A stretch of DNA of 64,000 bases from an uncultured bacterium (GCA_963844965.1 CAWJQC010000004.1:41609-105608); one strand, 5' to 3'; positions 5,034 through 59,251 are shown, counted from the stretch's first letter. The notes: generated from the sequence alone by a model not told the origin. Numbers and translations are program-made.

Positions 5034-5812
5034 CGGAGAAACGGGACAAGTCGGCCCTGGCCAGGGCCATGGGCGTCTCACGGGCATCGCTCTACTACGT
5101 TCCGAAACAGTACGCGAAGGATTGGGCATTCAAGATCCTGATCGAGGAAGAGCTGCGGCGCCATTCCTCGTACGGCTCGCGGCGCCTGGCGCAAGCCCTC
5201 CACGCGAACCGCAAACGGACCAGGCGTGTGATGAAGCTCTTTGGCATCAAGCCATACCGGAGGCGGGGCAAGAAATATCGTAAATCAAAGGCATCGCGGG
5301 CCTTTCCGAACCTCTTACTTGCCATCATGCCCTCGTACGCGAACCACGTCTGGGCAACCGATTTCACGGAGTTCCTGTATCGCGGCAAGAAAGTGTACGT
5401 GTCCACGATACTCGATCTTTTCACGAGACGATTGATGGGCGTCCATGTGGCGTTGCGGAAAGGATCGCCCCTCACGATACAGACCCTGGCCAACGCGCTT
5501 TTCCACCATCCGCATCCGGTCATCTTCCATTCGGACAACGGCAGCGAGTACAAGGCACGAGCGTTCACCGATACACTGGGGGACTGTGGCATCACGATCT
5601 CGCGGTCGCGGCCCGGTGCCCCATGGGAAAACGGCTACCAGGAATCGTTCTATGACAAGTTCAAGATTGACCTCGGTGATCCCAACCGGTTCGGGACCTT
5701 CGGCGAGCTCGTGGCGGAGATCTACAGCACCTTGTGGCAGTACAACCACACGCGGATCCACTCCGCCCTCAAGATGCCGCCGTCCGTGTTTGCCGAGAAG
5801 ATTGCGGCTTAA
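5030..5812 (+). CDS. IS3 family transposase OrfB (DDE/rve integrase core)
   Basis: WATDFTEF, HSDNGSEY and PWENGYQESF give a D, D, E triad in rve-like spacing. Confidence 0.85.
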   Translation: MTEKRDKSALARAMGVSRASLYYVPKQYAKDWAFKILIEEELRRHSSYGSRRLAQALHANRKRTRRVMKLFGIKPYRRRGKKYRKSKASRAFPNLLLAIMPSYANHVWATDFTEFLYRGKKVYVSTILDLFTRRLMGVHVALRKGSPLTIQTLANALFHHPHPVIFHSDNGSEYKARAFTDTLGDCGITISRSRPGAPWENGYQESFYDKFKIDLGDPNRFGTFGELVAEIYSTLWQYNHTRIHSALKMPPSVFAEKIAA

Positions 5813-11311: not shown

Positions 11312-14300
11312 ATGTCCAAGTTCACGCATCTCCATATCCACTCCCACTATTCTCTGCTTGACGGCCTCACAAAAATTGACGACCTTGTCGCGCGGGTAAA
11401 GGAACTCGGAATGGATTCGGTAGCGCTCACCGACCACGGCGTTCTCTACGGCGCCGTTGAATTTTACAAAAAGGCGCGGGCCGCCGGCATAAAACCGATC
11501 CTCGGCCTCGAAACCTACGTCGCGCCGAGGGACAGGTTCAGTAAAGAAACGAGTGAGCGGTATTATCACCTCATACTCCTCGCGGAAAGCAACACCGGCT
11601 GGAAAAATCTCATAAAACTTTCCACCAAAGCGCACCTGGAAGGGTTTTATTACAAACCCCGCGTTGACAAAGACCTTCTGCGGGAATGCCACGAGGGACT
11701 CATCGCGCTCTCGGCATGCCTAGGCAGCGAGATCGGCCAGGCGCTCCTTGAAGGCAACACGGAAAAAGCTGAGCGCATCGCTCGGGAGTATGAAGAAATA
11801 TTCGGCAAAGGAAATTATTTTCTGGAGATCCAAAAACATCCGCGCATTGCCGATTCAGAAAAGATAGAGACGGGACTCATAGACCTGTCGCGCGCTACCG
11901 GCATCCCTCTCGTCGCCACGCAGGACAGCCACTACCTCCGCTCAGAGGATGCGGAATACCACGACGTGCTTCTCGCTGTGCAGACCGGCAATCAACTCGC
12001 CGACCAGGACCGCCTGACGATGAAAGACGATGACTTCTCCCTCCTTTCTCCGGAAGCAATGGCGGAAAAATTCGTGCGCGTTCCCGAAGCCATCGCCCAG
12101 ACTTCCGTTATCGCCGAGCGCTGCAATGTTGAACTGCAACTCGGAAAAGTTATCCTGCCGAATTTTCCCAAGCCGGAGGATAAAACCGCGAACGAATACC
12201 TGAGCGACTTGATAAACGAAAAGATCGGTAATCGCTTCACAAAAGAAAAACAAACTCCTGAACTTTTGAAGCGATTGGAATACGAGCTCACTACGATCGA
12301 GAAGACCGGATTCGCCGATTACTTTTTGATAGTCGCGGACATGATCAACTGGGCCAAAACCCACGGCATAGCCGTAGGCCCTGGCCGCGGTTCCGCCGCC
12401 GGAAGCCTGGCTTCGTATATCCTCGGCATAACGGACATCAATCCGCTTGAATACAACCTCCTTTTTGAGAGATTCCTGAACCCCGACAGGGTTCAAATGC
12501 CGGACGTTGACATGGATTTCGCCGACACGCGGCGCGATGAGGTCCTGGCATATCTGCGCGAAAAGTACGGCACCGACCATGTGGCGCAGATAATAACTTT
12601 CGGAACGATGATGGCGAGAGCGGCGTTGCGGGACGCGGGCCGCGCGATGGGATTTAGCTATAATTTCTGCGACCAAATCGCCAAGCTGATCCCGTTCAAT
12701 CCGACACAAGGAATGAAAGAAGGATGGCTGGACAGGTGTCTCGCCATGGTGCCGGAACTTAAATCCACCTACGAAGGCAATGTGGACGCCAAGCGCCTCA
12801 TTGACACCGCACGGCATCTTGAAGGAGTGGCGCGCCACGCGTCGGTCCACGCCTGCGGTACGGTGATCTCCAAAGAGCCGCTCGTGAATTACCTGCCGTT
12901 GCAGCTCGCGCCACAGGACAAAAACAATGTCATCACACAATTTGAGATGCACAGCGTGGAAGACCTGGGACTCCTCAAAATGGATCTCTTGGGACTCAGG
13001 AACCTCACCGTAATAGAGGAAACCGTACGCCTCGTGAAAGACACGCGCGGCGAGGAGTTGAAAATTTCCGAACTGCCGCTCAACGACAAAAAAACATTTG
13101 AACTTCTGCGGGCGGCGAACACCACGGGCGTCTTCCAGTTCGAAAGTTCCGGCATGAAACGCTATATGAAGGAAATTGAACCGACAAGCATTGAAGACCT
13201 AATCGCCCTCGTCGCTCTTTTCCGCCCCGGCCCGATGGAACTTATTCCGTCCTTTATCAATCGCAAGCATGGGCGGGAAAAAATCACATATCTTCATCCC
13301 CTGCTTGAACCAATCCTAAAAAACACCTACGGCATCGGCGTTTATCAGGAACAAATGATGCAAATCGCCCGCGACCTCGGCGGCTACACGCTCGCGGAAG
13401 CCGACACCCTGCGGAAAGCGATCGGCAAGAAAATAAAAAAACTTCTGGACGAACAGAAAGAAAAACTCATAAGCGGCATGCGCAAAAAAGGCATACCGCA
13501 AAAGACGGCGCAAGCTATCTGGGAACTCTTCCCACCTTTTGCGCGCTACGGTTTCAACAAATCGCACGCCGCCTGCTACGCCCTGATCGGCTACCGGACT
13601 GCATATCTCAAAGCGCACTATCCGGAGGAATTCATGGCGGGACTCCTCAATTCCGAGCTGAGCGATATTGACCGCATCTCGGTTCTCATAGAAGAAGCGA
13701 AGCAGTCCAACATCGGGATACTGCCGCCGGACATTAATAAAAGTTTCGTAAATTTCACACCAGAGGGAGAAAAAATCAGGTTCGGTCTGGTAGCTGTGAA
13801 AAATGTCGGCGAAGAGATAGCGAAGAACATCATAGAAGAACGGATCCGCGGCGGCCCGTTCAAGAATTTTGAGGATTTCCTCTCGCGGGTTCAGCACAAA
13901 GACCTGAACAAAAAATCCCTGGAGTCGCTCATAAAAGGCGGCGCGTTTGACTCGCTTGGCGTGGAGCGCAATCAGGCCCTCCAAGGAATGGAGGATGTGC
14001 TCAGGTTCGCGAACGTTTTCCGCAAAGGCGCAGCATCCATGAATGGCAGAAGTACTTCCCTCTTCGGTGTGAGCACGCCCAAAGCTTCGTTAAAATTGAA
14101 AATTGTTCCGCCGGCGACAAACGAGGAAAAGCTTGCCTGGGAAAAGGAACTCCTCGGATTCTACCTGTCCGAGCATCCTCTGAAGGCCTACGAGAAAAAA
14201 ATAAACGGCTACAACGCGAAGCCGATATCCGAAGTGCGGAAGATAACGAACGGCCAGCTTACGGTGCGGACCGCGGGCCTTGTCTCACAAATCAAAAAAA

Positions 14301-14509: not shown

Positions 14510-14600
14510 TTTTAGAAAATAGTAAGTAGAAATTAGAAAATAGAATTTTGTCGGGATTTTCGGCGAAGTTCCGATTTCTATTTTCTATTTACTATTTTCT
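14510..14600. repeat. word-repeat palindromic spacer (tagaaa/ttctat words) between convergent dnaE and the cytidylyltransferase gene
   Basis: AGAAAATAGTAAGTAGAAATTAGAAAATAGAA ... TTCTATTTTCTATTTACTATTTTCTACTTTCTA, imperfect inverted arms. Confidence 0.5.
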
Positions 14601-15006
14601 ACTTTCTATCTACGATATTGCTTTTATATCTATGCGGCTCGTGCGCCCTCAAAACAACCATCTTCGGCCGCCAACGAAATTCCTTGCGGTGATTTTTCAG
14701 GTCCTCTTTGAGCGCCACCTGGTCGTAACCCAAAGCGATAACGTCGGGCTTGTGCTTTTTCACGACCTCGTAAACGCCGAGTTCAGCGTCGCCGAGCGCG
14801 ACCTCGTCAACAAGAGGTTCTTTTCGCAGGTCGTCAATTCTCCGCGCGAGATTTCTCTGCGGCAGACGGCCCTTCAAGTACTCAGCCGTATGGTCCTGCG
14901 CGACTGCGACGAGCAAATAATGGCCGTATTCCCTGGCTTGTTTAAAAAATTGACGGTGACCTTCATGGATGCCGTCAAAAACGCCGAAGACCAGAACTTT
15001 TTTCAT
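14599..15006 (-). CDS. cytidylyltransferase-like nucleotidyltransferase (HIGH motif; TagD/HldE-domain-like)
   Basis: MKKVLVFGVFDGIHEGHRQFF... about 135 aa, Rossmann-like HxGH signature. Confidence 0.5.
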   Translation of the reverse strand: MKKVLVFGVFDGIHEGHRQFFKQAREYGHYLLVAVAQDHTAEYLKGRLPQRNLARRIDDLRKEPLVDEVALGDAELGVYEVVKKHKPDVIALGYDQVALKEDLKNHRKEFRWRPKMVVLRAHEPHRYKSNIVDRK

Positions 15007-17215: not shown

Positions 17216-17277
17216 GATAGAAAATTAAAAAATTTAAAAATCAAAATGCAAAATTTGGGTGTCCTACGGACCAGATT

Positions 17278-18141
17278 TTATAATTTGTCAATTTTAAATT
17301 TTTCATTGTTATTTTGAACTTTGATTTTTACATTTTCAACTTGATACTTGCCGGTCCACAGCCACCAACGAATTTTACACGTTTCCCATAAAGTTTTCAA
17401 GTAGGCGGAAGCCGGAAGCCTTGAGCGGGCATCGTTCACCCAATGAACCGGAATTTCCTTAATTTTGTAGCCGAATTTCTTGGCCAATGCCAGGATCTCC
17501 ACGTCAAATCCCCAACCGCTGATTTTTGATAAATTGAAAATTTTTTCCGCTGCCTCATCCGTAAACGCCTTGAAGCCACACTGCGTGTCCCAAATCTTCG
17601 GCAACAGCAGTGCTTGAATGATCAAATTCCCGACCTTTCCCGGGATCTGGCGGTAGAAGGGCTGCGGCGGGTCAAGTTTGCTTCCTTTGAGCACGCGGTC
17701 ACAGATCACGACATCATATCTCTCGCGCGCCGCCACGGTCGGCGCAGAAAGCGTTCCCAGTTTCATATCATCCGAATCCGACTCAACTGGTACGCCTCCC
17801 GGAGCAAAATACGGCATCATGGCATTGAAGTGATCTATGGACGTAGAATTGTCGGCATCGGTGAAGAGCCGAATCTTCCCCCTTGCGAGAAGCATTCCCT
17901 GCCGGACAACTCCGCCCTTGCCCTTGTTCTCGGAATTATCTATCAGCTTGAGGTTTTTGATAAGCTTCGCCATATTGCTGACGATTTGGGCGGTGTTGTC
18001 CTTTGAGCCGTCGTTCACGACCAAAATTTCGTAGGAATATTCCGCGTCTGCCAGGCGCTTGTCAATATCAACGAGCGTCAAGGGCAGCCGCTCGGCCTCG
18101 TTGTAGGCGGGAATGATGATAGAAAGATAGGGCTGGGCCAT
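17278..18141 (-). CDS. family 2 glycosyltransferase (DPM1-like)
   Basis: IIIPAYNEAERLPLTL ... VVNDGSKDNT ... DADNS motifs. Confidence 0.75.
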   Translation of the reverse strand: MAQPYLSIIIPAYNEAERLPLTLVDIDKRLADAEYSYEILVVNDGSKDNTAQIVSNMAKLIKNLKLIDNSENKGKGGVVRQGMLLARGKIRLFTDADNSTSIDHFNAMMPYFAPGGVPVESDSDDMKLGTLSAPTVAARERYDVVICDRVLKGSKLDPPQPFYRQIPGKVGNLIIQALLLPKIWDTQCGFKAFTDEAAEKIFNLSKISGWGFDVEILALAKKFGYKIKEIPVHWVNDARSRLPASAYLKTLWETCKIRWWLWTGKYQVENVKIKVQNNNEKFKIDKL

Positions 18142-18276
18142 TGAAATAGAAAATAGAATTTAGAAAGTAGAAAGTAGTAGGTAGTAGGAAGAAAAAACTG
18201 AAAATTTCTAAATTCTAATTTCTGATTTCTAAACAATTAAAATTATAACACAAAAGAAACAGCTGAAATTCCACGC

Positions 18277-24562: not shown

Positions 24563-24707
24563 GTTGGCGTTAAATTTCTAATATCTAATTTCTAATTTCT
24601 AAACAATATTTGAAATTCCAATGACAAAAACTTAAAATGGTCTGTTTTCAATTTGGGACTTAGAAATTGGGGTTTGTTTAGGATTTAGAAATTAGGAATT
24701 AGGGCTT

Positions 24708-26311: not shown

Positions 26312-26392
26312 GATTATAAATAAATTTTCAATTTTTAATTTTCAATTTTAAAATGTTTGGAAATTGTAAAATTGAGAATTATAAAATTGTTT

Positions 26393-29865: not shown

Positions 29866-30198
29866 TTATTTCTTGACCTCCTTTGCCGGCGCGGCAGCCG
29901 GTGCTCCAGCGACAGCGGCGCTCGCCTCCAACTCACGCTGCATCTTGCCGCCGTGCCGCGTGAACTTCCTCGTCGGCGCGAATTCTCCCAAGCGATGGCC
30001 GACCATTTCTTCGCTCACTTTAACCTCAATGAAGATCTTGCCGTTGTGAACGCCGAAAGTGAATCCCACCATTTCCGGTGAAATCTCCGAAGCCCGCGAC
30101 CATGTCTTAACAACCACCTTGTCGTCGGGCCTGAGTTTGGAAACCTTCTTAAGAAGTTTCGGGTCAACATAAGGACCTTTCTTTAGCGAGCGGCTCAT
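29866..30198 (-). CDS. rpsS: 30S ribosomal protein S19
   Basis: [19 protein letters not shown]... [17 protein letters not shown]. Confidence 0.9.
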
Positions 30199-30274
30199 AA
30201 TGATAAATTTTCAATTTCCAATTTTCCAATTTCCAAACGTTTGGAAATTCTGAACTTGGAATTATTTTCTCCGT

Positions 30275-38174: not shown

Positions 38175-38287
38175 AAATTTATATTACAACAATTTAATTT
38201 CTAAGTCCAAGCCCTGAATTAACAGAGAAATTCAAAACCGCCTTTTCGGGCGGCTTTGTTTCTGCGTAATTCCGCGTAGTTCCGCGC

Positions 38288-51628: not shown

Positions 51629-52648
51629 TCAATCGCGCCTCTTCAAAACAGGCGGCTGCTCCTCGCCCTTATTACCTTTATTCTCGCCGCCCTGCTGTGT
51701 CTGGTCGGTCGGCTCGCGCTTCTTAAGCGTCGGCTTTCCTTCGGTTACTTTCCTTCTGCTCGTCACAATTTGCAGCCGATCTTTCACGTCATCAAACTCG
51801 GATGTAGACACGAGATACTGGTCCTTTTTCGGAAGAATTTCCTTAATCTCCTTCTCTATTTTTATAATCCTGTCACCAGTTGGCGGATGGTCGGCAAAAA
51901 CGTTTGGCACGCTTCCGGGTATTCGCCTTTCTTCTTCAATAACCTTGGAAAACATACCTACGTAGGACTCCGGGTCGTAGCCCGCCTTATACATGTACTG
52001 CAATCCCAGATAGTCCGCCTCGGCCTCGTCGTTGCGGCTGAATTTTAAAAACGCAATAGGTATGCCAAAGTTCATGGCCTCCATAGTCGCAATGTAAACA
52101 GGATAAGACATGGGTACGAAGATAAGAGGAATTGTGGCGTATTGGAGGAGCGTGGCTTTTGTCATCTGCGACGCCCAATGCCGGCACGCAACGTGCGCAA
52201 TCTCGTGCGCCATCACTCCGGCAACCTGACTTTCTCCATCGGCAACAAGAAGCAGGCCAGAATTAATATACAAGAACCCGCCAGGGAGAGCGAAGGCGTT
52301 GATTCCGGGCGCATCTATAACTTTCACCGTAAGAGGAACTTTCAGGTCCGAATTCCGCGCAATGTTCTGAGCGACGCGGTTGACATACTCGCCCACCACA
52401 GGGTCGGTCAAAAGTTTCGCCGATTTCTCAACTTCGGTGGAGTATTGTTTCCCGATGGCAATCTCTTTTTCAATGGAAATTATTGACTTGTGCGCGACCT
52501 TGCGGTTGCCGATTTCTTCGGGGTTGTCTTTGCTCTTCTGTCCGTCCGCCGAAGCGCCATAAGCCCTGGGAGGGCACGCCATAATGGCCAAAAGGATAGC
52601 AAGAATAATTACAAGAATCAGGTATCGTTTCTTGACCGTACCGCTCAT
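51629..52648 (-). CDS. M48 family zinc metallopeptidase (BepA/YcaL-like), secreted or membrane-anchored
   Basis: HEIAHVACRH (HExxH), GINAFALPGGFLYINSGLL; N-terminal signal/TM. Confidence 0.7.
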   Translation of the reverse strand: MSGTVKKRYLILVIILAILLAIMACPPRAYGASADGQKSKDNPEEIGNRKVAHKSIISIEKEIAIGKQYSTEVEKSAKLLTDPVVGEYVNRVAQNIARNSDLKVPLTVKVIDAPGINAFALPGGFLYINSGLLLVADGESQVAGVMAHEIAHVACRHWASQMTKATLLQYATIPLIFVPMSYPVYIATMEAMNFGIPIAFLKFSRNDEAEADYLGLQYMYKAGYDPESYVGMFSKVIEEERRIPGSVPNVFADHPPTGDRIIKIEKEIKEILPKKDQYLVSTSEFDDVKDRLQIVTSRRKVTEGKPTLKKREPTDQTQQGGENKGNKGEEQPPVLKRRD

Positions 52649-52881
52649 AAGCCACCTCCTTTTCCAGATTCAACCAACTGCTTCCACTCTACCAAAAAGC
52701 GGGAAAAAATCCAGAACCTGTCCAAGTCGTTGCGGAAAGACGTTTTTGGATATAAAATAATAAAACCGGCCGCGAAGCCCGACATAATCAGCGCCATTCG
52801 GCTTAATAAAAATCCGCCCATAGCTCCCACCTTCGCCGAGGCTTCGGCGGGCAAGCAACTGGCCCCGCACCAAAATTTATC

Positions 52882-52954
52882 CGCGCGTAGCTCAACTGGC
52901 AGAGCAGCTCCCTCTTAAGGAGACGGTTGCAGGTTCGACTCCTGCCGCGCGGAC
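52882..52954 (+). tRNA. tRNA-Lys (anticodon CUU)
   Basis: CCGCGCGUAGCUCAACUGGCAGAGCAGCUCCCUCUUAAGGAGACGGUUGCAGGUUCGACUCCUGCCGCGCGGA; anticodon loop CUCUUAA. Confidence 0.8.
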
Positions 52955-53084
52955 TGGAAAAATTAAGGATAAATTTGGTGCGGGTTAGACGCCGCAGCTC
53001 TCCTCTTACAACCGCGTAGCGAGGCGAGGATAAAAATCGCCAATTTTTATTTTCGCCGAGCGAGCGGGTGGCGAAACAGGTTTT

Positions 53085-53125
53085 CGCAGGAAAAGGTTCC
53101 AGGTTCAAGTCCCTGCTTGCCAGCA
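53085..53125 (+). other. tRNA T-arm-like repeat matching the fragment at 46328-46375 (candidate att core)
   Basis: AAAGGTTCCAGGTTCAAGTCCCTGCTTGCCAG versus ACAGGTTCCAGGTTCGAGTCCTGGCGAGGGCA (21/23 identities in the core). Confidence 0.4.
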
Positions 53126-53623: not shown

Positions 53624-56305
53624 ATGAGTGGGATAAAAATAAATCTTTCTCTCAGCGAAATCCCAGGCATCGGCCCGCGTTTTCTGGAACGGCTGGGAAA
53701 ACTCGGCATAAAAACCGTCCGTGATCTCATTTATCATTTTCCGGCCCGCTACGAGGATTTCTCCCAGATATACAAAATTTCCGACGTTGAGCCGGGGGAA
53801 CAGGTAACAATACGTGGCGTTGTTGAAGACACCAAACTGCGGCGGACTTGGAGAAAACACATGACAATCGCCGAAGCCCTGATCCGCGACGATTCCGGAA
53901 CGATACGCGCCATCTGGTTCAACCAACCATATGTTTTGAACACTCTGCGGGTCGGGCGCACGGCGAATTTCGCAGGCAAAATATCCATATCGGACGAGGA
54001 CGAAATTTATTTGAGCCACCCGGCTTATGAAATCGTCGGCAGTCGGGAGTCGGGAACGGAGAAGCAAGAAACAAAACATACAGCGCGGCTCGTCCCCATT
54101 TATCCCGAAACGCGCGGCCTCACATCCAAGGGGTTGAGATATCTGATCCAGCCAATTCTGAAAAACAGCGAACAGCTGGAGGAATGGCTGCCGCCGGAAG
54201 TTCTGCGCGAAAATAATTTTCCCGAAATAAACCTTGCGCTCAGATCCATACACTTCCCCGAAAAAACCGAGGATGCTCTTGTCGCGAAAAAACGCTTCAC
54301 TTTTGAAAACCTGTTCCTGCTGCAACTCGCCAATCTTGAACAAAAATTGAAACTCGCGCGCGAAAAAGCGCCAGTGATCAAAACCGACATAGAACACCTG
54401 AAAAAAATGATCTCGGAACTGCCATACGAACTCACGTTTTCGCAAAAGAAATCATTGTGGGAAATCATCCAGGACCTCGCCAAAAAACAGCCGATGAACC
54501 GCCTGCTCCAGGGCGACGTGGGCTCCGGCAAGACGGTTGTCGCGGCGCTCGCCGCGGTAATTACCGCGGAAAACGGGCTGCAGACCGCGTTTATGGCGCC
54601 AACCGAGGTTCTCGCGAGACAGCATTTTGAAACATTGAAAAAATTATTCGCCGGAATTCCCTCGATCCATCAACCCGTAGTTGGGCTTCTCACGTCAAGC
54701 GAAGCAAAAATCCTCTACGCGACAGACCTTGAATCAAAAATCAAAAAACCGGAGTTGCAGGAAAAAATAAAAAACGGCGAGGTAAAAATAGCCATCGGCA
54801 CGCACGCTTTGATACAAAAAGACGTGGCGTTCGGCAATCTTGCCTTTATCATCATTGACGAACAGCATAGATTCGGCGTCTCACAACGAGCTGCGCTCGT
54901 TCGCGGACAGACGCAGAATGATAATACGCGGACAGACGCTGAACAACTACTATACGAAAAAACGACGTTTGAGATAAGAAAAAGTCTGTTTGAGGTGAGA
55001 AAACAACTGGGCCTTGGTCATAAAGAAGTGGTGTATCAGAAAGCATTGGAGGAGGAGTTCAAGAAATCCGGTGTAATATTTGAGAAAGAAAAGAAAATTC
55101 CTGTCGTTTATAACAAGAAAAAGATTGGCGTTTATCAACCGGATTTTGTCATAGATAATGAAGTAATTTTGGAACTTAAGGCTCTTCCCTTTATCGGCGG
55201 CATCGAAAAAAAACAGCTGTGGAATTATTTGAGGGGTTCGGATTACAAACTCGCGCTTATGGCAAACTTTGGACCGGAAAGATTATCCATAGAGCGGGTA
55301 GTATACGATATTGCGCGGAGTCGGCGGCTGTCAGCGTCCGGTCAGCAACTGTCCGCGCCTATCCCCCACCTCCTCTCAATGTCCGCCACGCCAATCCCAC
55401 GCACGCTCATGCTCACCGTCTTCGGCGATTTGGATATATCGCTCATCACCGAACTTCCCGCCGGCAGAAAAAATATCGTAACAAAAATAATCCCCCCACG
55501 GGGCAGGAGCGAAGCCTATGAATTCATCCGCGGCGAAGTGAGGGCCAGCCGGCAGGTTTTTGTCATCTGCCCCCGCATTGACAAACCGCAGACAGGCGCA
55601 GACCACACGCAGACAAACGCAGACAAGACACAGACAGACGCAGACAATTTTCAGCGGCTGTCTGCGTCAAGTCAGCGACTGTCCGCGTTAAGTCCACGTA
55701 AGTCCGCGTTAGTGTGGGAAGTAAGATCCGTGAAAGAAGAATTTGAAAAATTATCCAAGAAAATTTTTCCGGATTTGCGCGTCGCCATGCTCCACGGCCA
55801 GCTCAAGCCAAAAGAAAAAGCGGGTATCATGAAGGACTTCCGCAACTACAAAATAGATATTCTCGTTTCAACTTCCGTCGTGGAAGTTGGCGTGGACGTG
55901 CCGAACGCAACAATAATGATGATTGAAGGCGCCGATCGCTTCGGGCTGGCTCAGATCTACCAATTCCGCGGACGCGTGGGGCGCGGCGAACACCAATCCT
56001 ATTGCTTCCTGTTCACGGATTCGTCCGCCAAAACTACGCGCGAGCGGCTGCAGGCCGTCCTTGAAGCCAAGAACGGCTTTGAGCTCGCCGAGAAGGACCT
56101 GAAGATCCGCGGTCCCGGCGAATTCCTCGGCACGGCGCAGACCGGCTTTCCCGACACGGCGATGAGCGGCCTCATGAACCCGGAGCTCGTGAAAGCAAGC
56201 CGCGAAGCGGCGGCAAAAATCGTCCAAAAAGATCCGCTTTTCAAAAATTATCCGCTCCTGAAAACCAAATTAAACGAGTTCCGGAAGGAAATCCACTTGG
56301 AGTAG
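53624..56305 (+). CDS. recG: ATP-dependent DNA helicase RecG (893 aa) carrying two in-frame insertions
   Basis: Wedge/OB N-terminus; helicase motifs GSGKTVVA, IIIDEQHRFGV, SATPIPRTL, TSVVEVGVDVPNA, QFRGRVGRG; intact ORF. Confidence 0.85.
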   Translation: MSGIKINLSLSEIPGIGPRFLERLGKLGIKTVRDLIYHFPARYEDFSQIYKISDVEPGEQVTIRGVVEDTKLRRTWRKHMTIAEALIRDDSGTIRAIWFNQPYVLNTLRVGRTANFAGKISISDEDEIYLSHPAYEIVGSRESGTEKQETKHTARLVPIYPETRGLTSKGLRYLIQPILKNSEQLEEWLPPEVLRENNFPEINLALRSIHFPEKTEDALVAKKRFTFENLFLLQLANLEQKLKLAREKAPVIKTDIEHLKKMISELPYELTFSQKKSLWEIIQDLAKKQPMNRLLQGDVGSGKTVVAALAAVITAENGLQTAFMAPTEVLARQHFETLKKLFAGIPSIHQPVVGLLTSSEAKILYATDLESKIKKPELQEKIKNGEVKIAIGTHALIQKDVAFGNLAFIIIDEQHRFGVSQRAALVRGQTQNDNTRTDAEQLLYEKTTFEIRKSLFEVRKQLGLGHKEVVYQKALEEEFKKSGVIFEKEKKIPVVYNKKKIGVYQPDFVIDNEVILELKALPFIGGIEKKQLWNYLRGSDYKLALMANFGPERLSIERVVYDIARSRRLSASGQQLSAPIPHLLSMSATPIPRTLMLTVFGDLDISLITELPAGRKNIVTKIIPPRGRSEAYEFIRGEVRASRQVFVICPRIDKPQTGADHTQTNADKTQTDADNFQRLSASSQRLSALSPRKSALVWEVRSVKEEFEKLSKKIFPDLRVAMLHGQLKPKEKAGIMKDFRNYKIDILVSTSVVEVGVDVPNATIMMIEGADRFGLAQIYQFRGRVGRGEHQSYCFLFTDSSAKTTRERLQAVLEAKNGFELAEKDLKIRGPGEFLGTAQTGFPDTAMSGLMNPELVKASREAAAKIVQKDPLFKNYPLLKTKLNEFRKEIHLE
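54903..55357 (+). mobile_element. in-frame insertion inside recG encoding a GxxExxY-type PD-(D/E)xK domain, bounded by inverted repeats
   Basis: Left end is a tandem CGCGGACAGACGC (54903, 54927). Right end is GGCTGTCAGCGTCC...CAGCAACTGTCCGCG (55349-55357 is the reverse complement of CGCGGACAG). Encoded segment: GLGHKEVVYQKALEEEFKKSGVIFEKEKKIPVVYNKKKIGVYQPDFVIDNEVILELKA...LMANFGPERLSIERV. Confidence 0.5.
55588..55712 (+). mobile_element. second, cargo-less in-frame palindromic insertion of the same repeat family inside recG
   Basis: CAGACAGGCGCAGACC...GACAGACGCAGACAATTTTCAGCGGCTGTCTGCGTCAAGTCAGCGACTGTCCGCG. Translates as QTGADHTQTNADKTQTDADNFQRLSASSQRLSALSPRKS between conserved RecG blocks. 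Confidence 0.45.
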
Positions 56306-56571: not shown

Positions 56572-59017
56572 CTACTGCTCCATATGACCGACAAGGGTGC
56601 ATGTATAAAAGTTACCAGTGCATTGGGATGAATTAGTAACATCCCAACAAGTTGAATAAGTCTCCAGCGCGCCACTACAAGGAGTGGTATTAGCGCATGA
56701 ACTGTTGTAGTAACGAATATAAGTCATATACTGCGGGCAGAAGTAAATCGGCGTCCCGCCTGTAACTTTAAGAGTGCCGGGAATGATGACGTTGCCGTTT
56801 GCTAGAACCTGTATAGCTGCTCCGGTTGTAGTAGCTGTACCAGTATTCGGCATACTGCCGCCAATACCGACGTTGCCGGCATAGTTGATGACTAATTTAT
56901 TTGATTCTGCCGCACTAGGATAATTTCCCACCATAAGCATGGCGCCCTGATTAACATCGCCCACATCGAGCAGCACCGCATCCGCATTGGTCGTAGCCGC
57001 GGTGCCGTAGAACGTGCCGGTATTGGTATCCCTGTTCTGCTCGAACTGGGTGCCGTAATCACCGGTGTTATACAAGAACGAATAGGTGGGATTACTAAAA
57101 TCGCTGTACATCTCAAGGCCGGGGCCGGTACCGGCAGTATTTGAATATGCATAAAATTGATAGTTGGCGGGCGCCGCCGCTCCCACCCCGATTCCGGAGG
57201 TGAATAAACCTCCTCCAGTTACCGTCAGTTTCTGGGTCGGCGCCGTATTCCCGATGCCGACGTTGCCGGAGGAATTCCAAATACCGGTGCCAGGCATCGT
57301 AACGTTGCCAGTAAAGGTCGGGCTCGCTAAAAGCGCCGCTCCGGTAACCTGCGCTACCCCGTAGTCACCAGATGCCGCCACCACGGCTCCGGTTCCGCCA
57401 AATACCGAGGTGACGCCGCCGCTCGGCCAAGCCGTGATGCAATTCGCCCCGGAGATGCAATATTGAGTGGCGTTTGCGGTAACCGTTGACGTACAGAGCG
57501 TACCCTCCGCCTGAGTTTGTGAAATACCCACCGTAGCCGCCGGAGTTGGTGGCTAATCCATAAACTCCTACGCCGTTACCTGCCGCTGACTGTCCGGCAA
57601 CCCCTACCCAGTAAGAAGCGCCGACCTGTCCGCCGAGAATCCCATTCGTTGTGGCGTTGCTATTATTTCCCGTTACCGAGCCGACCCATGATGAATTGAC
57701 GGCGCTCGTGAAACTGCCTACGCCAGCAACAACCAACGGATATGCCGGCGTCGTCGTCCCGATGCCGACGTTGCCGTTCGTGATGGAGAAATATGGACCA
57801 CCCCCCATCCCAGTGCCAAGCGCCAAATTGAGGCCATAAGATTGTGACGTCAAATCAGCGTATGTAAATGCTCCGTTGCTGGTGGTGAACTTTATCCAAT
57901 CTACGTTTGACCCGTTTGTATTGTCTAGCCGTAAGGTAGACGTACTTCCACTCTGAATATCAAGTTTTGCGACCGGCGCCGTGTTCCCGATGCCGACGTT
58001 GCCGTTGTTATTTATAAACAAGGCGGGTGACGCGCCGGATGAGTCAGAACCCTGAGTCAAAAAGGCCATTGGAGAACCGTTACTGCCGATCCGGGCCCAG
58101 TTCGCAACTGCTGCCGGTCCAAGCTGTAGCAAGGCATCGGTACCGTTAGATGTCAAGTCAAACTTGGCGAATTTTGACCCGTTCACGACATGCAACGTCG
58201 TTGCCGGCGACGCCGTCCCGATGCCGACGTTGCCGCCATATGCAAGCGTCATTATTTGGGAGTACCAACTGCTGGGGTTCTGATACCCAATCGTCAAGAC
58301 CGAATTATCTGACGCTGGTGCAAAAACATACCCATTATTACTGCCAGCCATATCGCGGAGCTTGAAGGCTCCAAAGACATCAAGTGTATTTTGTGGTGAC
58401 GGCGTCCCGATGCCGACCGAGCCCGAGAAATACCCGCCGCCGTAGACGGAGAGGGCCTGCGGCAAGTTGCTGGCGGAGGATGTGGTAACGCCCAGAGCGG
58501 AAGAAACAAACACACTGTGGGGGAACCCGTAGGGAACGCCGGAATCGGCCTCTAGAGAATTGAACACCGCGGGCGTGACATAGCCGGCGTTGACGGTCCC
58601 GTTAAAATTGCCGTGGATCGTGCCGTTCACGTCAAGCTGGTAGCCAGGCGACGCCGTCCCGATGCCGACAGAACCGTCATTGCGCACGACAAGTATGGGC
58701 GACGAATTCGGATAAAGGATCTTCAATGTGTAATTCGCGGCATCAGCGGACGAAGAAGCAACGATGAGGAGTTTGGTTTCCGGCAGAGGCGTGGGCGTAC
58801 CAACGCCCAGATTCCCAGCCGCATTAGTGCTTACCGCTCCCGAACCGAAACCGGGGGTGGGAGGAGGAGAGGCAAACGCGTAGTAGGTAGTAGGTAGTAG
58901 GTAGTAGGTAGTAGCGAGAATGACGAAAAACAAAACGTGCGGCGCAAAACTCGGACGCACACCGTAAAACTTGCGGCGGAGCTTTTGCTGTTTTTGGAAC
59001 AAATCTGCGTCCATCAT
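56572..59017 (-). CDS. large repetitive surface protein (GNVGIGT-type Gly-rich repeats, Cys-rich C-terminal domain); frameshift near 57400-57530
   Basis: Two overlapping ORFs (57365-59017 and 56572-57531) in the same direction. Repeated NGNVGIGTTAP / SYGLNLALGTGMGGGPYFSITNGNVGIG units. Probable signal peptide MRPSFAPHVLFFVILATTYYLLPTTYYAFA from a GTG start. Confidence 0.5.
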
Positions 59018-59040
59018 AATAATTTACTACCTACTACCTA
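58879..59040. repeat. long inverted repeat (GTAGTAGGTAGTAGG x5 versus CTACCTACTACC) bracketing the start and signal-peptide coding region of the surface protein gene
   Basis: 58879-58913 GTAGTAGGTAGTAGGTAGTAGGTAGTAGGTAGTAGC and 59017-59040 CTACCTACTACCTACTACCTACC. Confidence 0.5.
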
Positions 59041-59251
59041 CTACCTACCGCTTTTAATTGTTTCGGGGCGACAATCTCATAGCTTTATTATATAAGAACA
59101 GGGAAAGATATGTAGAAAGGGGTGTGCATAGGCGCGAAAACTGCCCGAGCGGCGGCCGCAAATTTCCCGGCCATCCGGGATATAAAAAAGGCTCTCGCGA
59201 GGAATTGCGAATTGCGAATCCTCACGAGAGCCAAACATACCGGAGGGGAAT

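Follow-up and report, generated by a model that had tools for sequence, protein, structure and literature searches.

In-frame nuclease-bearing inserts in recG of a Patescibacteria genome: a candidate family of mobile cassettes translated through with their host genes

Palindromic elements lying in frame within protein-coding genes have reportedly been known from Rickettsia since the work of Ogata and colleagues in 2000 (the Rickettsia palindromic elements, RPEs), and we know of no enzyme ever identified as mobilizing such RPE-like palindromes. Among small PD-(D/E)XK nucleases, homing endonucleases such as I-Ssp6803I drive homing, and T7 endonuclease I cuts branched or cruciform DNA. The ORF-bearing intervening sequences of 23S rRNA, in which a stem surrounds a small ORF, are removed by RNase III. 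Coding palindromes have also been described in nematomorph mitochondrial genes (PMC6649704), and the GxxExxY/PDDEXK_3 family has been listed as being of unknown function since 2012 (PMC3424549). In the searchable non-paywalled literature we found no description of in-frame nuclease cassettes of the kind analysed here, or of GxxExxY domains residing inside other genes.

We have analysed the recG gene of an uncultured member of the Patescibacteria (CPR) together with the whole 64,000-nt stretch of DNA in which it lies (the window), and find that recG holds two inserts built from one repeat family, the first of which encloses a GxxExxY nuclease domain. We suggest that both inserts probably represent an undescribed family of in-frame mobile cassettes of Patescibacteria that are translated through with their hosts.

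Table 1. Features of recG and its surroundings, with positions counted from the first nucleotide of the window
Feature	Position	Strand	Description
recG	53624..56305	+	Single uninterrupted ORF, 893 aa, holding elements 1 and 2
Element 1	54902..55357	+	Cassette of autonomous type: left arm, nuclease ORF without start or stop, right arm; 456 nt = 3 x 152
Left arm of element 1	54902..54943	+	Two CGCGGACAGACGC(A/T)GAA blocks, direct repeats; each block contains two CGCRGA-type units
GxxExxY/PDDEXK_3 nuclease domain	54962..55297	+	aa 447–558 of RecG, PF13366 match
Right arm of element 1	55321..55357	+	TCGGCGGCTGTCAGCGTCCGGTCAGCAACTGTCCGCG, repeat family and inverted pairs; ends in CTGTCCGCG
Element 2	55587..55708 (approximate)	+	Cargo-less hairpin, same repeat family as element 1 (CGCRGAC)
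Possible solo right-arm array	38256..38286	+	TTCTGCGTAA TTCCGCGTAG TTCCGCG; three units, intergenic

The recG gene and its two inserts

In a profile search, the recG product matched the RecG NCBIfam equivalog NF008168 with 765 bits (curated cut-off 718) and carried the Pfam domains RecG_wedge, DEAD, Helicase_C and RecG_dom3_C; insert-free RecG orthologues are ~705–730 aa long. The open 893-aa ORF bears out the original prediction of two in-frame inserts in an intact recG, and in an AF2 model of the whole protein (mean pLDDT 81.5) the helicase core and the nuclease are both folded confidently and the arm-encoded stretches are disordered. To our knowledge, recG has not been identified as an essential gene in these organisms.

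Element 1 has the termini CGCGGACAG and CTGTCCGCG, with a 9-nt perfect terminal inverted repeat (54902–54910 and 55349–55357), and was found between DEQHRFGVSQRAALVRGQ and PIPHLLSMSATPIPRT of RecG, that is, between helicase motifs II and III. The translated insert (about 151–152 aa, with zero Cys) starts at VRGQ/TQND and ends at QQLSA/PIPH. Within the left arm, which translates to RGQTQNDNTRTDAE, the CGCGGACAGACGC copies start at 54902 and 54927, and aa 430–440 form a disordered linker in the AF2 model (pLDDT below 50); the right arm translates to RRLSASGQQLSA, and aa 564–576 are disordered as well. Since a neighbouring reading frame across this stretch contains 11 stop codons, the open frame of insert 1 is not due to chance. 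The same site is filled in ~45 of 120 RecG orthologues and is a clean loop in the empty orthologue L081.

The cargo had been assigned to GxxExxY/PDDEXK_3, and two profiles confirm this near full length and above their cut-offs: PF13366 at E 8.5e-28 (97.5 bits vs 22, profile positions 3–116 of 117) and TIGR04256 at E 1.5e-29 (102.7 bits vs 35, profile positions 3–116 of 116). The motifs GHKEVVY, PDF and ELK are present, and the catalytic-type residues E468 (55025–55027), D507 (55142–55144), E517 (55172–55174) and K519 (55178–55180) are all intact; these four are invariant across 23 embedded copies. Members of the family usually have ~125 aa, whereas the recG cargo is not a small stand-alone protein but an internal domain lacking its own start and stop. 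Its PD-(D/E)XK fold is similar to that of the Cas4/RecB-family nucleases, and the four-cysteine Fe-S cluster of that family is absent from the Cys-free insert 1. With Pfam and NCBIfam profiles only PDDEXK_3 was recovered from the cargo, and no transposase (DDE, HUH or serine/tyrosine recombinase). In a PDB profile search the T7 endonuclease I junction resolvases were the only solved proteins detectable by sequence, and weakly so (E 0.16); hhalign gave a probability of 76% for the cargo against a T7 endonuclease I sequence, a 50-residue stretch of which agrees with the PDB match, and Pfam Phage_endo_I on one cargo homologue scored below threshold. Judging from its sequence, the cargo is predicted to act as a nuclease and may promote homing. 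The family is large, with 6959 clusters (50% identity) matching the recG insert at E ≤ 0.001. Public records name entire RecG fusions ‘GxxExxY protein’ (NCBI annotation).

Element 2, whose edges are fuzzy, consists of a left array (55587–55647) of six CRCRGAC units, at 55587, 55597, 55608, 55618, 55629 and 55639 (a spacing of 10–11 nt), and a right array (55651–55708) of two or three inverted 21-nt units. It translates to QTGADHTQTNADKTQTDADNFQRLSASSQRLSALSPRKSA with the frame open, and aa 653–690 are a disordered loop in the AF2 model. The fold of -57.7 kcal/mol (z = -6.7 vs shuffled sequences) and the lack of cargo uphold the view of insert 2 as a cargo-less hairpin, and the repeat analysis agrees that a common repeat family is found in both inserts. 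L081 has an orthologous hairpin that is shorter by 42 nt (2 x 21), and in the close relative L082 another palindrome family occupies the site; the hairpin family at RecG site 2 differs between RecGs that are 89–92% identical.

Within the window, a 13-mer motif (≤2 mismatches) occurs in 11 copies vs 2.2 expected, a count reached in 0 of 100 shuffles, and nine of these copies sit within recG. The possible solo array follows directly after a terminator-like hairpin (38239–38254); its unit is of the kind seen in the right arms of free-standing copies, which have TAA/TAG spacers, and it may be a member of the element family. A six-frame HMM search detected no second full cassette outside recG within the 64-kb window. 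The expectation that the repeats would recur elsewhere in the genome is thus answered only in part, the window having no second full copy and at most the possible three-unit array; across Patescibacteria, however, the cassette lies in many genes (see below). The window also contains palindromes made of heptamer arrays, AT-rich, located between genes and repeating every 7 nt, which we do not assign to the element family.

Distribution across host genes, frame and repeat arms

Homologues were collected by an exhaustive representative protein search with the insert (a word-indexed protein search gave 4 matches only). It returned 31 clusters at E < 1e-30, and the top-scoring matches lie nearly all inside larger proteins, the Pfam domains of which are interrupted by the cassette. 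Hosts include RecG (four sites), LepA, LeuRS, SecA, GatB, RtcB, DHFR, AsnB and transketolase, as well as GT2 and GT4 glycosyltransferases, Wzy and a P-type ATPase; besides recG, at least 17 unrelated gene families, mostly housekeeping, have in-frame cassettes across Patescibacteria. A viral contig scan for phage carriage yielded only relatives 27–37% identical, and PADLOC gave no match to a defence system.

A DNA-level search, independent of gene calling, confirmed 388 loci, and the best 80 were analysed; in this sample, which consists of the loci closest to the embedded query and leans towards embedded copies, the frame is open across both junctions in 78 cases (>250 codons downstream and >45 codons upstream), vs a chance expectation of about one third. 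Nearly all of these 80 loci have inverted arrays (median local score 30.5 vs 16 for the direct-orientation control), with arm units spaced by 10 nt (206 cases), 11 nt (105) or 12 nt (31) and the core ACGCRGA common to arms in different hosts. The best partner of a left arm is its own right arm at 13 of the 80 loci (chance 1), and the latter ranks within the top five partners at 31 (chance 5). GC3 is 0.27 in the cassette vs 0.43 in the host within one ORF, the cassette being lower at 76 of 79 loci. No target-site duplication was seen: flanking direct repeats at 77 loci are no longer than mismatched-flank controls, and none is visible at recG. A 5-nt ATGTT repeat at one free-standing copy was rejected as such a duplication on the strength of the same test.

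The comparative data all come from metagenome-assembled genomes (MAGs), several of which bear implausible taxon labels, and artefacts of assembly or binning have to be considered, as does a chance repeat. However, hundreds of assemblies produced independently in different projects show the same arm-nuclease-arm architecture, with intact ORFs and with repeat statistics far beyond shuffled controls, and we regard the probability of an artefact as negligible.

It could also be argued that the inserts are removed after transcription or translation, as introns or inteins are, either through pairing of the arms in mRNA or through protein splicing. The arms indeed form a long-range stem closing around insert 1, insert 2 is a strong hairpin, and the RtcB ligase is present in these genomes. 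RNA excision, however, would not need the 3' junction to be in frame, as it is at 78 of 80 loci, and arm mismatches are A.C in 93 cases vs G.T (compatible with G.U) in 36, whereas selection acting on a sense-RNA helix would give the reverse. As for an intron or a known RNA, an Rfam scan gave only sub-threshold miRNA-like matches on insert 2 (21–28 bits vs gathering thresholds of 54–100), which are generic hairpin noise. Further, the recG inserts have no intein features, as had been claimed: Pfam matches at E ≤ 0.01 include no Hint or intein family, and the junctions (R-G-Q...S-A/P) lack the Cys/Ser and His-Asn signatures, those in LepA and LeuRS being just as unsuited to intein splicing. The catalytic residues, moreover, are of the metal-dependent D..ExK type and not the Y/H/K set of EndA. 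Removal of the inserts appears very unlikely to us.

The same RecG site can also be filled by a second nuclease family, which is 26% identical to the recG cargo, has ATCCGAA arms, and is found elsewhere as free-standing copies, in MnmA, GT4 and pilin leaders and at another RecG site; each enzyme family goes with its own arm motif (CGCRGA in family A, CCGAA in family B). Free-standing Patescibacteria GxxExxY copies have the arm-ORF-arm layout of the embedded cassettes, and in one such copy the ATG lies in the first arm unit and the stop codon in the right arm.

These data bear on the proposal that the nuclease is an ancestral domain of RecG, domesticated since the clade ancestor and serving, for example, to couple junction cleavage to branch migration. 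Such a role would suit an enzyme that works on branched DNA, as RecG does, an insert that is widespread in RecG, and a cargo whose only sequence-detectable solved relatives are the T7 endonuclease I resolvases. It would be functionally senseless in LepA, LeuRS, SecA, GatB, DHFR, glycosyltransferases or pilin leaders, where the cassette is also found, and does not account for a different nuclease family at the same RecG site. The hosts closest to the window recG are either empty (78% and 74%) or have inserts just 50–52% identical. The original prediction had set a segment shared by orthologues without flanking repeats against a mobile element; inverted arrays accompany the cassette at nearly all loci, and the segments in RecG orthologues always have them. 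We find an ancestral RecG domain extremely improbable.

Selection, phylogeny and turnover

The dN of the cargo is ~0.1 vs a pS of 0.6–0.8 and, by this measure, the cargo is under strong purifying selection. Since synonymous sites are near saturation in both insert and host, recent transfer is not demonstrable by dS. The best match to the recG insert is about 66–68% identical and lies in a host 66% identical and, given this and the saturation, the recG copy in the window is probably an old resident.

The cargo phylogeny appears to disagree with that of the hosts: LepA hosts that are 43–50% identical have inserts 81–85% identical, and LepA hosts that are 61–63% identical have inserts 53–57% identical, an incongruence that could look larger than it is because the cargo is so strongly conserved. 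The RecG tree (our trees are neighbour-joining or identity-based) needs at least 16 gains or losses of the cassette, and RecG pairs 89–92% identical disagree in cassette presence, in site and in element family; in one discordance the cassettes, at site 1 vs site 3, are 51% identical. The nearest neighbour of an insert shares its host site in 40 of 45 RecG inserts and 22 of 27 LepA inserts, so that long vertical inheritance at these two sites accounts for much of the pattern.

Taken further, the latter finding might mean that the cassettes are fixed relics, once mobile, with the RecG and LepA copies now vertical passengers, the ORF of which is kept open solely by the fact that a stop codon or misfolding would destroy the host protein. 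Besides the same-site neighbours and the saturated synonymous sites, the occupancy of one site across many Patescibacteria classes, the single cassette copy in the window and the correlation of cassette GC with host GC (r = 0.81) are all in line with such passengers. However, foldability alone would not hold four catalytic-type residues invariant, at the low dN given above, in more than 10 unrelated hosts, and the differences in occupancy, site and element family between hosts 89–92% identical, together with the decoupling of insert from host identity, argue against a purely vertical history. We consider fixed relics unlikely.

A proposed mechanism and comparison with known systems

In the mobile-cassette reading that we favour, a full element comprises two inverted arrays of a 10–11-bp unit (in this family, core ACGC(A/G)GA and termini 5'-CGCRGA...TCYGCG-3') enclosing an ORF, devoid of its own start or stop codon, for a Cas4/RecB-like PD-(D/E)XK (GxxExxY) nuclease. 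Upon insertion into a surface loop the host frame would stay intact, since the total length is divisible by 3 and neither arm has a stop codon in the frame used; the nuclease would be produced within the host protein, as an internal domain on disordered arm-encoded linkers (TQTDAD-type from the left arm, RxSA-type from the right). Element 2 would be a non-autonomous hairpin, with arms but no cargo. With regard to mobility, we infer that the arm arrays are what the nuclease binds or cuts, in the form of phased duplex sites or of an extruded hairpin or cruciform. The breaks may be mended by copying, which would lead mostly to same-site, homing-like spread among orthologous genes, at times to a jump to a new site, and also to loss of the cargo or to precise loss; selection would retain only in-frame insertions in permissive loops.

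Were this true, the cassette architecture would give the uncharacterized GxxExxY family a biological role, as the enzyme behind a new class of mobile elements in prokaryotes, and would represent a new form of selfish DNA in which a nuclease is expressed solely as part of a host protein. The cassettes would explain why RecG, LepA, LeuRS, SecA and other Patescibacteria proteins are oversized, accounting for part of their puzzling insertions and inflated lengths. The labelling of entire RecG proteins as ‘GxxExxY protein’ is an annotation error. They would also supply naturally validated permissive loops and linkers, useful for domain insertion into conserved enzymes. The cargo is a candidate new nuclease that may be structure-specific or repeat-specific, and the cassette family provides a testable case for the mobilizing enzyme of RPE-like palindromes.

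Like the RPEs, element 2 (and likewise the other cargo-less hairpins) is a short palindrome, in frame and translated with its host, and to this extent the Rickettsia-like manner of insertion originally proposed holds; the likeness is one of analogy and not of family membership. RPEs are single palindromes from a different phylum, with a different sequence and no known autonomous form encoding an enzyme, whereas here there are arrays of a 10–11-bp unit and a full element with a nuclease. Inverted repeats are also tolerated within essential genes in the nematomorph palindromes (PMC6649704) and in the 23S rRNA intervening sequences, but these belong to other genetic systems and have no nuclease cargo. 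MITE/TIR pairs and REP-RAYT (REPIN) systems similarly combine an enzyme-encoding element bearing inverted repeats with short non-autonomous hairpin derivatives; unlike them, the cassettes show no target-site duplication and no DDE or HUH transposase, and their enzyme, without its own start or stop, is expressed within the host protein.

The cargo itself is a bona fide member of the free-standing GxxExxY proteins by HMM score and motif, and resembles I-Ssp6803I and phage T7 endonuclease I in being a small PD-(D/E)XK nuclease, its sequence similarity to the latter being weak and confined to the catalytic core. As with homing endonuclease genes, a nuclease ORF occupies a conserved site of a conserved gene and is sporadic among close relatives, but here it is continuous with the host and does not lie in a self-splicing intron, an intein or a separate gene. 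Homing-endonuclease inteins are likewise in-frame, selfish, nuclease-bearing inserts beside the most conserved motifs, helicases included, sporadic among close relatives and with a phylogeny decoupled from that of the host. The cassette differs from these in lacking a Hint splicing domain and splice-junction residues, in apparently being kept in the mature protein, in having a nuclease of the PD-(D/E)XK and not the LAGLIDADG or HNH type, and in being flanked by repeat arrays. We tentatively propose that, next to introns and inteins, the cassettes may offer mobile elements a third way of residing within conserved genes: an element that is neither spliced out nor placed between genes but translated as a loop-out domain of the host protein, and whose nuclease would recognize its own helically phased arrays or their cruciform and drive homing-like copying, ectopic jumps and the trans-mobilization of cargo-less hairpins.

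Two in-frame segments in recG

The product of the recG frame is assigned to RecG by NCBIfam equivalogs and by Pfam (RecG_wedge, DEAD, Helicase_C and RecG_dom3_C), and the intact frame contains the two extra in-frame segments that the original prediction had claimed, neither of which has a counterpart in ordinary RecG. Segment 1 is bounded by blocks of CGCGGACAGACGC at 54902 and 54927 on the left and by an inverted array terminating in CTGTCCGCG on the right; it measures 456 nt (152 codons) from first to last terminal base and encodes a complete GxxExxY/PDDEXK_3 domain (PF13366, E = 8.5e-28; TIGR04256, E = 1.5e-29; nearly the whole model), with 11 stop codons in the neighbouring frame. Segment 2, which consists of six CRCRGAC units at 10–11 nt spacing followed by inverted units, is predicted to form a hairpin by itself (−57.7 kcal/mol, z = −6.7). 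The repeat family common to both segments occurs 11 times in the window (2.2 expected), and nine of the 11 copies lie inside recG. Every detail of the original prediction that could be checked is correct.

Positions of features in the window and in loci fetched from other genomes (L-handles)
Feature	Sequence	Position	Strand	Remarks
recG host ORF, 893 aa	window	53624–56305	+	single uninterrupted frame (ORF listing)
Segment 1	window	54902–55357	+	between helicase motif II (DEQHRFGV) and motif III (SMSATPIPRT)
Segment 2	window	about 55587–55708	+	between VICPRIDKP and LVWEVRSVKEEF
M48 peptidase gene	window	51629–52648		syntenic together with recG, as in relative L082
tRNA-Lys	window	52881–52954		just upstream of recG
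Listed ORFs overlapping tRNA-Lys	window	52490–53108		look spurious
Solo right-arm-type array	window	38256–38286		three 10-nt units TTCYGCGTAR
Terminator-like hairpin CCGCCTTTTCGGGCGG, then TTCYGCGTAR units	window	38239–38286
7-nt-unit palindromes	window	14513–14609, 17221–17336, 18144–18232, 24573–24702, 26323–26385, 30197–30265
7-nt-unit palindromes	L082	20786–20909, 22496–22584
GTAGGTA/TACTACC inverted repeat	window	58883–58913 and 59025–59048		perfect over 24 nt
Large surface-protein-like ORF	window	57365–59017	−
Added cargo-less hairpins	L046	about 5267–5349
Added cargo-less hairpins	L074	3555–3616
Added cargo-less hairpins	L080	6849–6918
Added cargo-less hairpins	L044	4887–4965
Added cargo-less hairpins	L051	5081–5150
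LeuRS with two insertions	L057	3152–6895
Second element family	L082	about 11950–12100		site 2
Second element family	L097	7270–7800 and site 2

No second full cassette is present in the window outside recG. The TTCYGCGTAR array, near which there is neither a nuclease gene nor a left arm, resembles in its units a cassette-family right arm standing alone. Many intergenic palindromes of the window have arms of tandem AT-rich 7-nt units, e.g. (TAGAAAA)x5 ... (TTTCTAT)x5, and are rich in stop codons; they are located between genes or immediately behind a gene. Their design (inverted short-unit arrays) is similar to that of the recG arms, but their period is 7 nt and they are non-coding. They could serve as terminators or regulatory sites, or could represent another family of repeats. 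Further, the GTAGGTA/TACTACC repeat brackets the start codon and first ~35 codons of the surface-protein-like ORF and is partly coding, its downstream arm being translated as ATTYYLLPTTYY.

Host genes, arm arrays and the nuclease domain

Used as the query of an exhaustive HMMER search, the 151-aa insert matched 6959 clusters at E ≤ 0.001, of which 31 reach E < 1e-30, and the best-scoring ones lie almost all inside larger proteins at varied positions. In these hosts, identified by Pfam as RecG, LepA, LeuRS, SecA, GatB, RtcB, dihydrofolate reductase, asparagine synthase, transketolase, a P-type ATPase, GT2 and GT4 glycosyltransferases, Wzy-type ligases and type IV pilin leaders, the insert divides the host Pfam domain into two matched stretches; the hosts represent at least 17 unrelated families. 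A search of species-representative genomes at the DNA level, chosen to sidestep gene-calling bias, yielded 388 confirmed loci, of which the top 80 were retrieved. Among these 80, which are the loci most similar to an embedded query and come exclusively from Patescibacteria MAGs, the nuclease frame is open for >250 codons downstream and >45 codons upstream in 78, the share expected in frame with an unconstrained 3' junction being one third. About 46 of the 80 occupy RecG site 1, and 27 a single position in LepA that is flanked by the GITIK and DTPGH motifs. An artefact has to be weighed where all genomes are MAGs; we give it a negligible probability.

At nearly all of the 80 loci the left flank matches the right flank once the latter is reverse-complemented (median local score 30.5; 16 in the direct-orientation control, 21 when arms from other loci are used). 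Each arm consists of three to five units that share a conserved ACGC(A/G)GA core; the units are spaced by 10 nt in 206 cases, by 11 nt in 105 and by 12 nt in 31, i.e. one helical turn, and since alternating spacings of 10 and 11 nt add up to 21 nt, or seven codons, the frame is kept. Whatever the host, the cassette termini, 5'-CGCRGA...TCYGCG-3', encode Arg-Gly (or Arg-Arg)...Ser-Ala. The own right arm is the best partner of the left arm in 13 of 80 loci (chance 1) and among its top five partners in 31 (chance 5), which indicates that the two arms of one element evolve together; arm mismatches (A.C 93 versus G.T 36) have no G.U bias and thus give no hint that a sense-RNA helix is under selection. 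One free-standing copy, located between two ABC-transporter genes, has the layout of the embedded cassettes: the first of its arm units contains the ATG, and the stop codon falls within the right arm. Free-standing Patescibacteria homologues typically end in ...SA*, which is the right-arm end.

By sequence, the cargo is a genuine GxxExxY-family protein; the function of this family is listed as unknown (PMC3424549). E468, D507, E517 and K519 match residues invariant in 23 embedded copies from different hosts. Kinship to T7 endonuclease I, a junction-resolving enzyme that is the sole solved relative by sequence (at non-significant E values), is a lead only: there is one weak Pfam match in one homologue, a weak PHROG endonuclease match, and an hhalign probability of 76% against a T7 endonuclease I sequence. 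AF2 predicts a confident cargo core (pLDDT above 90) with disordered arm-encoded tails, and for full-length RecG a confident helicase and a confident nuclease domain, disorder being confined to aa 430–440, 564–576 and 653–690, stretches that coincide exactly with the arm-encoded parts and insert 2. These models fit a nuclease that loops out on flexible tethers. We suggest that read-through probably yields the cassette product as a domain within the host protein, with the arms also serving as disordered linkers; removal of the insert after transcription or after translation we regard as very unlikely.

Cassette fusions were also observed in which a type IV prepilin cleavage motif follows immediately (G|FTLIE...; proteins P0160, P0161 and P0187, loci L101, L102, L104, L109, L111 and L125), where prepilin peptidase would presumably free the nuclease from the pilin in a natural equivalent of splicing. 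Two LeuRS proteins combine the cassette with another in-frame domain (serine-hydrolase/alpha-beta-hydrolase, aa 658–822, in L057; NUDIX, aa 301–419, in P0147), and further in-frame cargo-less CGCRGA hairpins lie in a second LepA site, the Wzy N-terminus and the RecG wedge.

Probable movement between genes and genomes

The 120 top-ranking RecG homologues come without exception from Patescibacteria; the PDDEXK_3 domain is present in about 45 of them, which are 850–950 aa long, and the remainder measure about 705–775 aa. In all cassette-bearing RecGs but two the domain sits exactly at site 1 of the window; the empty site is a clean loop of 34–40 aa, and a few proteins of intermediate length (e.g. 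P0075) look like arms without cargo. Low-complexity peptides flank every RecG insert (TQTDAD-like on the left, RxSA-like on the right), and the DNA encoding them is mutually reverse complementary. Site 2 holds cargo-less hairpins in many orthologues, independently of the state of site 1; P0045 and P0061 make use of a site in the wedge domain (site 3), and another element family occupies one within the DEAD domain (site 4; L100). Direct DNA comparison with the two closest relatives showed an empty site 1 and a site-2 hairpin of the window's family, 42 nt (2 × 21) shorter, in L081 (encoding P0011), and a cassette at site 1 and a different palindrome family on CCGAA/TTCGG at site 2 in L082 (encoding P0006). 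Seven whole RecG proteins of 860–910 aa (P0016, P0019, P0021, P0024, P0028, P0045 and P0106) are annotated publicly as 'GxxExxY protein', a mislabelling of RecG-nuclease fusions, and several cassette-carrying MAGs bear implausible taxon labels (Spirochaetia, Nanoarchaeota, Gammaproteobacteria, Saccharibacteria).

A second family, whose nuclease is 26% identical to that of the window, has arms on ATCCGAA/TTCGGGT (peptides SELSEK and FGSFGS), so that the arm motif co-varies with the nuclease family. It uses the identical RecG sites 1 and 2 and another RecG site, and is found free-standing and in MnmA, GT4 and pilin leaders.

The distribution of cassettes departs from that of their hosts. Compared with the window's RecG, site 1 is empty in P0011 (host core 78% identical) and P0026 (74%) and filled in P0006 (73%), P0009 (71%) and P0010 (66%), with inserts 52, 50 and 68% identical, respectively, the last being the best match. 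On a neighbour-joining tree of the RecG core, one of the simple methods used for our trees, cassette presence needs at least 16 changes (36 with randomised states). Hosts 92% identical differ in carrying a cassette (P0068) or an empty site (P0121); P0006 and P0011 (89%) have site-2 hairpins of different families; and P0034 (site 1) and P0045 (site 3), also 89% identical, carry cassettes only 51% identical with differing arms. Similarly, inserts 81–85% identical sit in LepA genes only 43–50% identical and inserts 53–57% identical in LepA genes 61–63% identical (Spearman 0.06–0.15 for LepA host versus insert identity). Inserts group weakly by host in sequence identity (means of 0.60 within RecG, 0.63 within LepA and 0.58 between them), with close cross-host pairs (GatB versus LepA, 82%; LeuRS or GT2 versus LepA, 74%); the nearest neighbour occupies the same site for 40 of 45 RecG and 22 of 27 LepA inserts, so that same-site propagation dominates. 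Within one ORF, GC3 is 0.27 in the cassette versus 0.43 in the host (cassette lower in 76 of 79 loci), and cassette GC tracks host GC (r = 0.81). We conclude that the cassette is very probably a DNA-level selfish element with past transfers both from gene to gene and from genome to genome.

Since synonymous sites are near saturation, none of the transfers can be classed as recent, and it is here that a fixed relic has to be considered; we find it unlikely. The cargo is under strong purifying selection (dN about 0.1 at pS 0.6–0.8), which, in hosts as unrelated as LepA and glycosyltransferases, is best explained as selection at the level of the element. A domesticated accessory domain of RecG is highly improbable.

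Proposed mechanism and comparison with known systems

We suggest that the nuclease may recognise its own phased arm arrays, or a hairpin or cruciform formed by them, and that the element would be copied when the resulting breaks are repaired. Most copies would enter the corresponding site of an orthologous gene, through recombination in the strongly conserved flanking sequences, and an occasional one would land in a different place. Selection would then retain in-frame insertions in permissive loops only, and cargo-less hairpins may be deletion derivatives or be mobilised in trans. Taken jointly, an active nuclease, recognition of its own arms and copying by break repair have, in our judgement, somewhat better than an even chance.

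The cassette fails the defining tests of every class considered: it has neither the Hint domain nor the splice residues of an intein, no intron ribozyme, neither the target-site duplication (none detectable at 77 loci, with a mismatched-flank control) nor the transposase of a TIR transposon or MITE, and no HUH enzyme as in the REP-RAYT system. Full-text searches of papers outside paywalls gave no description of in-frame palindromic or nuclease elements in CPR or in the GxxExxY-family literature. On both grounds we rate the architecture as categorically new, and we infer the mechanism of its mobility. Rickettsia palindromic elements are palindromes inserted in frame and translated, and the homing endonucleases of inteins place a nuclease beside conserved motifs with a sporadic distribution; the cassette works like a hybrid of the two.
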